This document shows, one piece after another, positions 28,425 through 29,160 of a DNA stretch of 64,000 nucleotides; the stretch's first letter is position 1; every line of letters starts with the position of its first letter. Origin of the DNA: Escherichia coli. GTDB lineage: Bacteria; Pseudomonadota; Gammaproteobacteria; Enterobacterales; Enterobacteriaceae. The notes beneath the pieces were generated by a model, which saw only the letters and a program-made list of their open reading frames with translations, had not been told where the DNA came from and ran no database searches. The stretch lies in assembly GCF_044647545.1 (NCBI RefSeq), contig NZ_CP172818.1; one strand, written 5' to 3'. Position numbers and translations under genes: made by a program.

Positions 28425-28691
28425 ATGGAATGGTACATGGGCAAATATATTCGTCCCTTATCCGATGCGGTATTTACCATCGCATCTGATGACCTGTGGA
28501 TCGAGAGTTTAGCGATCCAACAATTACACACCACGGCAAATTTACCCAACATGCAACGCGTAGTAGGGATGCCAGATTTACATCCCGGACGCGGCTATCC
28601 GATTGGCGCAGCGTTCTTCTCCGTAGGCCGTTTTTACCCGGCAAGACGTCGCGGTAACGGTGCTGGAAACAGAAACGGGTCGCTACTCTGA
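28425..28691 (+). pseudogene. ykfJ: RtcB-like RNA ligase N-terminal fragment
   Basis: 88-aa ORF with RtcB-like segment (…VVGMPDLHPGRGYPIGAAF…) then frame loss. Confidence 0.65.
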
Positions 28692-29160
28692 CACACTGCG
28701 TTCGGCGCTGATTTCTCTGGATGGCGATAACGCATGGGCTCTAAGCGAAAGCTGGTGTGGCACTATCCAGTGGATTTGTCCGAGTCCGTATCGGCCTCAT
28801 CATGGGCGCAAAAACTGGTTTCTGGGCATTGGGCGTTTTACCGCTGATGAGCAGGAACAATCCGACGCGATCCGTTATGAGACGCTGCGTTCGTCGGGGC
28901 CGGGCGGTCAACATGTCAATAAAACCGACTCGGCGGTACGCGCCACGCATCTGGCATCCGGTATTAGCGTGAAGGTTCAGTCAGAGCGCAGTCAGCATGC
29001 TAACAAACGGCTGGCGCGATTACTGATTGCCTGGAAGCTGGAACAACAGCAACAGGAAAATAGCGCGGCGCTGAAATCGCAGCGGCGAATGTTCCATCAT
29101 CAAATTGAACGTGGCAATCCGCGACGGATATTTACCGGGATGGCTTTTGTTGCTGTGTAA
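28660..29160 (+). pseudogene. prfH: Peptide chain release factor homolog PrfH, truncated
   Basis: 166-aa ORF with class-I release factor GGQ motif ([16 protein letters not shown]); lacks normal N-terminal domain. Confidence 0.8.

Follow-up and report, generated by a model that had tools for sequence, protein, structure and literature searches.

Organization of the locus and identity of the two fragments

The window, that is, the whole 64,000-nucleotide stretch of Escherichia coli DNA that was analysed, carries two overlapping open reading frames (ORFs) on the plus strand at positions 28425-28691 (88 aa) and 28660-29160 (166 aa; overlap of 32 nt), which are bounded by yafP (27794-28246) and by pepD on the minus strand (29581-31038; Table 1). 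The surrounding gene order, dinB-yafN-yafO-yafP followed by pepD-gpt-frsA, is that of E. coli, in which the space between yafP and pepD is the usual location of the pair. One variant of this neighbourhood was encountered in strain SCPM-O-B-9427 (L015, NZ_CP086259.1, 1-1497), which has an intact rtcB2-prfH operon but lacks the yafN-yafO toxin-antitoxin pair, with dinB running directly into yafP. An earlier note on this DNA had described the ORF pair as an RtcB-like N-terminal fragment overlapping a 166-aa release-factor homolog, a description with which the coordinates, the model matches and the identities to the intact proteins agree.

Residues 5-73 of the first ORF matched positions 1-69 of the 379-position RtcB-family model NF007153 (E=7.6 × 10−31; 107.4 bits against a cut-off of 407), and the same ORF matched positions 1-59 of the 356-position model TIGR03073 'release_rtcB' (E=6.1 × 10−29; 101.1 bits against 271.8) and the Pfam RtcB model (23.3 against a cut-off of 27). 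Read from the annotated start at 28437, it is identical at 69 of 69 positions to residues 1-69 of the intact 379-aa RtcB2. The fragment thus scores below the full-length curated cut-offs of NF007153 and TIGR03073 and, with only residues 1-69 left, has neither the catalytic H294 nor the ligase core; solved RtcB structures align to residues 101-372 of intact RtcB2, beyond the retained part.

The second ORF exceeded the cut-off of TIGR03072 'release_prfH' (271 bits against 166.65; E=5.1 × 10−81; model positions 38-200 of 200) and is identical to residues 39-204 of the intact 204-aa PrfH at 165 of 166 positions, the sole mismatch being the start codon, a GTG read as Met. A match to the solved structure of E. 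coli PrfH (PDB 7SA4, chain 8) covers residues 39-202. The RF-1/GGQ domain (PF00472, E=9 × 10−25) is shared with ArfB (YaeJ) and with RF1 and RF2; however, only the PrfH-specific cut-off is passed, and the prfA, prfB and ArfB models match weakly, far under the cut-offs of those families (ArfB E=1.7 × 10−8). The scores of both fragments against their own models are far beyond chance, and alignment to the intact proteins establishes their relation to RtcB and PrfH. The GGQ motif was correctly reported as retained: it is encoded at 28903-28911 (ggc ggt caa) and aligns with G120-G121-Q122 of intact PrfH, and R83, H86, R88 and R189 are likewise still present. The N-terminus is incomplete, with codons 1-30 deleted and the first usable start at codon 39, and the overlap with a full-length upstream gene is gone, rtcB2 comprising only 69 codons here. 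The statement in the earlier note that the homolog lacks the normal N-terminal domain therefore holds only as far as truncation goes: full-length PrfH is naturally without domain 1 of RF1 and RF2 (Baranov 2006, PMC1586002), and what is missing here is 30 codons (38 to the first usable start), not that domain.

Table 1. Features of the rtcB2-prfH remnant and adjoining sequence in the window.
Feature	Position	Strand	Evidence or remark
Intergenic leader, yafP stop to rtcB2 start	28247-28436	+	Identical to intact-operon strains; lacks the K-12 130-bp insert
rtcB2 codons 1-69 of 379, N-terminal fragment	28437-28643	+	RtcB2 identity; NF007153 and TIGR03073; K-12 annotation
Deletion junction, sole surviving copy of the 9-bp microhomology, TACCCGGCA	28635-28643	.	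Alignment to L001
Out-of-frame tail of the RtcB2-fragment ORF (15 residues and stop, wrong-frame prfH DNA)	28644-28691	+	
prfH codons 31-204 and stop	28636-29160	+	DNA 100% identical to the FDAARGOS_497 intact allele (0/517 differences)
Longest prfH-remnant ORF, 166 aa, GTG at PrfH codon 39	28660-29160	+	ORF list; TIGR03072; 7SA4
GGQ peptidyl-tRNA hydrolysis motif (Gln is Q122 of full-length PrfH)	28903-28911	+	
Low-complexity degraded patch just 3′ of prfH	29167-29523	.	Found in no complete E. coli genome

One deletion generated both fragments

As the intact reference we used the locus of E. coli FDAARGOS_497 (L001; NZ_CP033850.1, 2633389-2638120), in which rtcB2 (3188-4327; 379 aa) and prfH (4324-4938; 204 aa) share a 4-nt stop/start overlap (4324-4327). 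Window positions 27791-28643 align without gaps and with 100% identity to L001 2542-3394, and the window from 28635 onward aligns with L001 from 4413 onward. The nine bases claimed by both alignments are microhomology, and therefore one 1,027-bp deletion (L001 3395-4421) removed the 3′ part of rtcB2 together with the 5′ part of prfH. The repeat copies at its ends in the intact locus, TACCCGGCA (L001 3386-3394) and TACCCGACA (L001 4413-4421), are identical at eight of nine positions, with the consensus TACCCGRCA.

Relative to the intact operon (ATCC 25922, CFT073, FDAARGOS_497; PDB 7SA4), the deletion took RtcB2 residues 70-379 (the 3′ 82% of rtcB2), the 4-nt overlap and PrfH residues 1-30, whereas the DNA that the window retains is 100% identical to FDAARGOS_497. 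Codons 31-204 of prfH were kept at 28636-29157, with the stop at 29158-29160 and a GTG at 28660 as the first possible start; since 1,027 is not divisible by three, the RtcB2 frame runs into prfH DNA out of register and ends at 28691 after 15 junk codons. Both fragments, RtcB2 1-69 and PrfH 31-204, are thus the product of a single deletion between imperfect 9-bp repeats and not of two separate pseudogenisations. The view of the earlier note that both genes are disabled, leaving a remnant of a translation-repair system, stands with the refinement that one deletion did so and that the junction is that of K-12.

Relationship to the K-12 pseudogene pair

A deletion of approximately 1,000 nt, eliminating the C-terminal portion of the upstream gene together with the N-terminal portion of RFH, was described in K-12 MG1655, W3110 and O157:H7 by comparison with CFT073, 042 and UTI89 (Baranov 2006, PMC1586002); the description of the K-12 pseudogene pair is credited to Pel 1992 as well (PMC1586002), and the K-12 deletion was restated by Tian 2022 (PMC9304027). 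The K-12 pair (MG1655, W3110 and BW25113; also O157:H7) occupies the same site, dinB-yafNOP-remnant-pepD-gpt, with the same 1,027-bp deletion, the junction TACCCGGCA and two ORFs, and in RefSeq both copies of K-12 are annotated as partial pseudogenes ('RtcB family protein, missing C-terminus' and 'prfH, missing N-terminus'). Alignments of the window to K-12 MG1655 and strain MIN9 run through the junction without a break, and O157:H7 and three metagenome contigs have the same 9-bp spacing between the junction flanks. Base for base, the junction is that of the K-12 pseudogene pair; the feature is already known and ordinary. With a 746-base query, which is too short to join the intact locus into one match so that contiguous matches mark the deletion and split matches the intact operon, the deletion allele was found in 1,999 of 5,426 complete E. 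coli genomes (~37%).

The window shares this junction without the flank substitutions that are linked to it in K-12: it has the haplotype of the intact operon and differs from the K-12 pair by 27 substitutions over the 703 flanking bases compared. It also lacks K-12's 130-bp insert 5′ of the rtcB2 start, and its DNA 3′ of prfH is different and degraded. The insert lies between yafP and the rtcB2 start (window 28418-28421; L002 3169-3299); it measures ~130 bp in K-12 and O157:H7 and 58 bp in MIN9, is absent from the window and from intact-operon strains, and may, judging by its sequence, be a REP-type repeat.

Flanking haplotype of the deletion

Comparison of the junction flanks with the intact FDAARGOS_497 allele revealed no differences, either upstream (0/198) or downstream (0/517). 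K-12, MIN9 and one metagenome allele each differed from the window at 7/198 and 20/505 positions, and O157:H7 at 7/198 and 30/505, so that each of the six natural deletion alleles aligned across the full flanks differs from the window at no fewer than 27 flank sites. For two further metagenome contigs (L010 and L011) and strain PCP07014 (L012) only 186 downstream bases could be aligned owing to a second deletion, and divergence over those bases was about equal. These three alleles (L012 1940-2134/2131-2284) combine the K-12-type deletion with a second deletion of ~165 bp within prfH; strain NY1601 (L013, 2371-2881) has a separate 1.5-kb deletion that took all of rtcB2 and about the first third of prfH (~70 codons).

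The closest contiguous deletion allele in the 5,426 complete genomes was 96.4% identical to the window, and all 83 records with at least 99% identity to the window locus were split, that is, had the intact operon. A search of metagenome contigs for the exact junction on the window's haplotype gave no match, while the degenerate control pattern retrieved three K-12-type alleles from the same source. Substitutions of the intact-operon type occur within ~17 bp upstream and within ~25 bp downstream of the junction, and no K-12-type substitutions occur immediately around it. On this haplotype the operon is otherwise always intact, which, together with the mosaic and degraded patches described below, makes the presence of the deletion in the sequenced organism doubtful.

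Mosaic structure of the window

The window as a whole is a composite. Over positions 1-37500 its identity to the FDAARGOS_497/ECONIH1 lineage is 99.8-100%, with equivalent matches to the strain named ST648 at the locus itself, yet the gene order follows K-12 wherever that lineage carries large additional DNA; the 20-kb type VI secretion system (T6SS) island of the FDAARGOS_497/ECONIH1/ST648-like lineage, for instance, is absent. The switch to K-12 sequence is sharp at thrW (tRNA-Thr, ~37500), and positions 38000-64000 show no difference from K-12 (W3110) apart from 61 around an IS1. The sequence at 37501-64000 comprises the CP4-6 prophage with K-12's own IS30, IS5 and ISEc19, together with mmuPM, yagE-H and argF. 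Of the segments specific to the other lineage, all those exceeding ~100 bp are either missing or degraded (20 kb of T6SS; 1,027 bp; ~0.8 kb at 29167-29523; ~0.2 kb at 7975-8021), only short stretches of that lineage surviving (29180-29236 and 29524-29577), and three inserts found only in K-12 are cleanly absent (130 bp, 150 bp and a ~0.9-kb rayT segment).

Two mobile elements are variants that none of the complete genomes carries in this context. The IS1 at 53707-54470 occupies the K-12 insertion site in CP4-6 but is a different variant, which shows 61 differences from the IS1B of K-12; every genome sharing the insertion site carries IS1B (93% identity over the IS1 query plus flanks), whereas 174 records contain copies at least 99% identical to the window's variant, apparently at other sites. 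The ISAs1-family transposase fragment at 15162-15420 is at the K-12 position, where ST648-like strains have the 20-kb T6SS island; it is ~95% identical to K-12, its best match among the 5,426 complete genomes reaches 97.3%, and its sequence reads as if averaged over paralogous copies.

The DNA just 3′ of prfH (29167-29523) begins as an imperfect copy (76% identity by BLAST over 179 bases, with many indels) of the 5′ end of a 'metal-dependent hydrolase' gene, passes into T10 and A14 homopolymers and rejoins the sequence of related strains exactly at 29524, standing in for ~0.8 kb that in those strains holds the metal-dependent hydrolase gene (510 bp) and a hypothetical gene (282 bp). The patch occurs in none of the complete E. 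coli genomes, and a 46-base probe from it had no match in genome contigs. The similarity estimate rests on the BLAST match and a MAFFT view; an alignment of the patch to the hydrolase region as progressive decay (free-end global with cheap gaps; 82-96% per block) was discarded as over-fitted. Another such patch, rich in poly-A (A11 and A9), lies at the yafD-yafE junction (7975-8021) and reproduces, with errors, the initial ~50 bases of a ~0.2-kb segment that ECONIH1 has and K-12 lacks, which forms the 5′ end of a longer, 771-bp methyltransferase gene. All homopolymers of at least nine bases in the 64 kb fall within these two patches. A short scrambled stretch at 23427-23443 corresponds to ~0.9 kb of rayT (REP-associated transposase) in K-12 and to 88 bp in FDAARGOS_497; the window has neither.

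Origin of the deletion in the window

Taken together, these observations make it probable that the pair is a K-12-type rtcB2-prfH remnant whose deletion was copied from a K-12 template into a chimeric window. With comparable assurance we expect that the source organism has an intact rtcB2-prfH operon and that the deletion belongs to the template. The window would then represent K-12 architecture carrying the base substitutions of the FDAARGOS_497/ECONIH1/ST648 lineage, a pattern expected of a reference-guided or K-12-backbone consensus: substitutions and small indels of the isolate would have been transferred onto the K-12 template and short K-12-only inserts removed, large K-12-only DNA lacking read support would have been left as pure K-12, repeats may have been 'polished' by reads from paralogous copies, and insertions absent from the template would have been dropped or half-built. 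A plain K-12-guided consensus was considered and set aside as an ill fit to the cleanly removed K-12-only inserts and to an ISAs1 fragment only ~95% identical to K-12; these features, with the surviving stretches of the other lineage, suggest that the pipeline included local re-assembly or polishing. The assembly method is something we infer from the chimera itself.

Alternatively, the allele may be authentic, a FDAARGOS_497/ST648-like strain with naturally K-12-like gene order having undergone the 1,027-bp deletion independently and recently. A deletion between 9-bp repeats could in principle recur with the same junction, the two repeat copies agree best in the intact allele of the FDAARGOS_497 lineage (TACCCGGCA/TACCCGACA, 8/9), and the operon is prone to decay in nature, as the further independent lesions in L010, L011, L012 and L013 attest. 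We nevertheless consider an authentic allele unlikely, since the deletion on the window's haplotype occurs in 0 of 5,426 complete genomes and in no metagenome contig, and since such an allele leaves unexplained both the 26 kb of zero-difference K-12 prophage with K-12 insertion sequences and the poly-A/T degraded patches at other structural differences. The stronger claim, that the deletion is real here and represents a second, independent event at this 9-bp microhomology, making the site a recurrent hotspot of convergent operon loss, is a rather improbable one: the aligned natural alleles with this junction share linked substitutions, which points to one old event and not to a hotspot.

A real recombinant, laboratory or natural, in which a K-12 recipient acquired ST648-like donor DNA and the deletion is the recipient's own, would account for the two-parent mosaic, its sharp switch at thrW (~37500) and the K-12 identity to the right of it. 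We rejected it as the main explanation and regard it as very unlikely because donor substitutions lie within ~17-25 bp on either side of the junction: keeping the K-12 deletion requires two crossovers within ~45 bp, equally close crossovers are needed at the T6SS and yafE sites, and recombination does not yield degraded low-complexity copies of donor sequence. Copying of the deletion from a K-12 template thus remains the favoured origin.

The intact system and function of the remnant

In other bacteria an intact rtcB2-prfH pair was said in the earlier note to be proposed to act in ribosome rescue and repair of damaged rRNA; this role has since moved beyond proposal and is experimentally supported (Tian 2022; Maviza 2022). 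PrfH enters the A site of 70S ribosomes in which colicin E3 or CdiA-CT toxins have cleaved the 16S rRNA between A1493 and G1494, reads the cleaved 3′-terminal nucleotide, releases the peptide via its GGQ motif and permits subunit separation, after which RtcB2 reseals the cut 16S rRNA of the released 30S subunit (Tian 2022, PMC9304027). The pocket for the cleaved A1493 has F9 and G10-P12 as one wall and R189 as the other, and the phosphate is held in place by R83, H86 and R88; PrfH Q122E and EcRtcB2 H294N served as catalytic mutants, the latter as the catalytic-dead control (Tian 2022, PMC9304027). PrfH thus recognises a cleaved 16S rRNA end, in contrast to the stop codons or empty mRNA channel that concern RF1, RF2 and ArfB. 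Strain BW25113, with the truncated operon, is sensitive to colicin E3 and deletion of its remnants makes no change, whereas protection is seen in ATCC 25922, whose operon is intact (Maviza 2022, PMC9223846).

The deletion cost the system the catalytic His294 of RtcB2, the F9-P12 pocket wall of PrfH, the prfH start codon and translational coupling to rtcB2. Because F9-P12 and the whole RtcB2 ligase core including H294 are deleted, we infer that the remnant is non-functional, in line with the experiments in BW25113. That the 166-aa PrfH fragment is still produced and keeps some function or has gained a new one, for instance as an ArfB-like GGQ rescue factor, is a proposal to which we give very little credence. 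The ORF is open, the GGQ motif is intact, R83, H86, R88 and R189 are kept, the ORF matches the ArfB model weakly (E=1.7 × 10−8) and ~2,000 complete genomes retain the remnant. Against this, the product has no native start codon, no upstream coupling and no F9-P12 of the recognition pocket; truncation costs a central beta-strand of domain 2, as argued by Baranov 2006 (PMC1586002); remnant knockouts of BW25113 have no colicin E3 phenotype (PMC9223846); and natural alleles keep losing further prfH sequence. Expression is also disfavoured, as no plus-strand promoter-like site was found in 28200-29620; promoter-like and terminator-like sites were not above shuffled-sequence frequency, and an Rfam search of 27000-31200 gave zero matches, so that neither result hints at a different role of this DNA.

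Implications for the RtcB2-PrfH repair system

The principal consequence is one of data quality: the pseudogene pair probably reflects the K-12 template and not the organism, and this record would be a misleading basis for scoring rtcB2-prfH, the T6SS island, the yafE N-terminus or the hydrolase gene as present or absent. To the biology of the system the locus adds little, the K-12 deletion having been published since 2006, its colicin E3 sensitivity having been tested and its allele being carried by ~37% of genomes. If the deletion were authentic, it would be the first independent recurrence of the same deletion, of modest interest for the loss of accessory anti-toxin defence; and if the 9-bp repeats were a hotspot, they would point to repeated, convergent loss of a ribosome-repair defence in E. 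coli.
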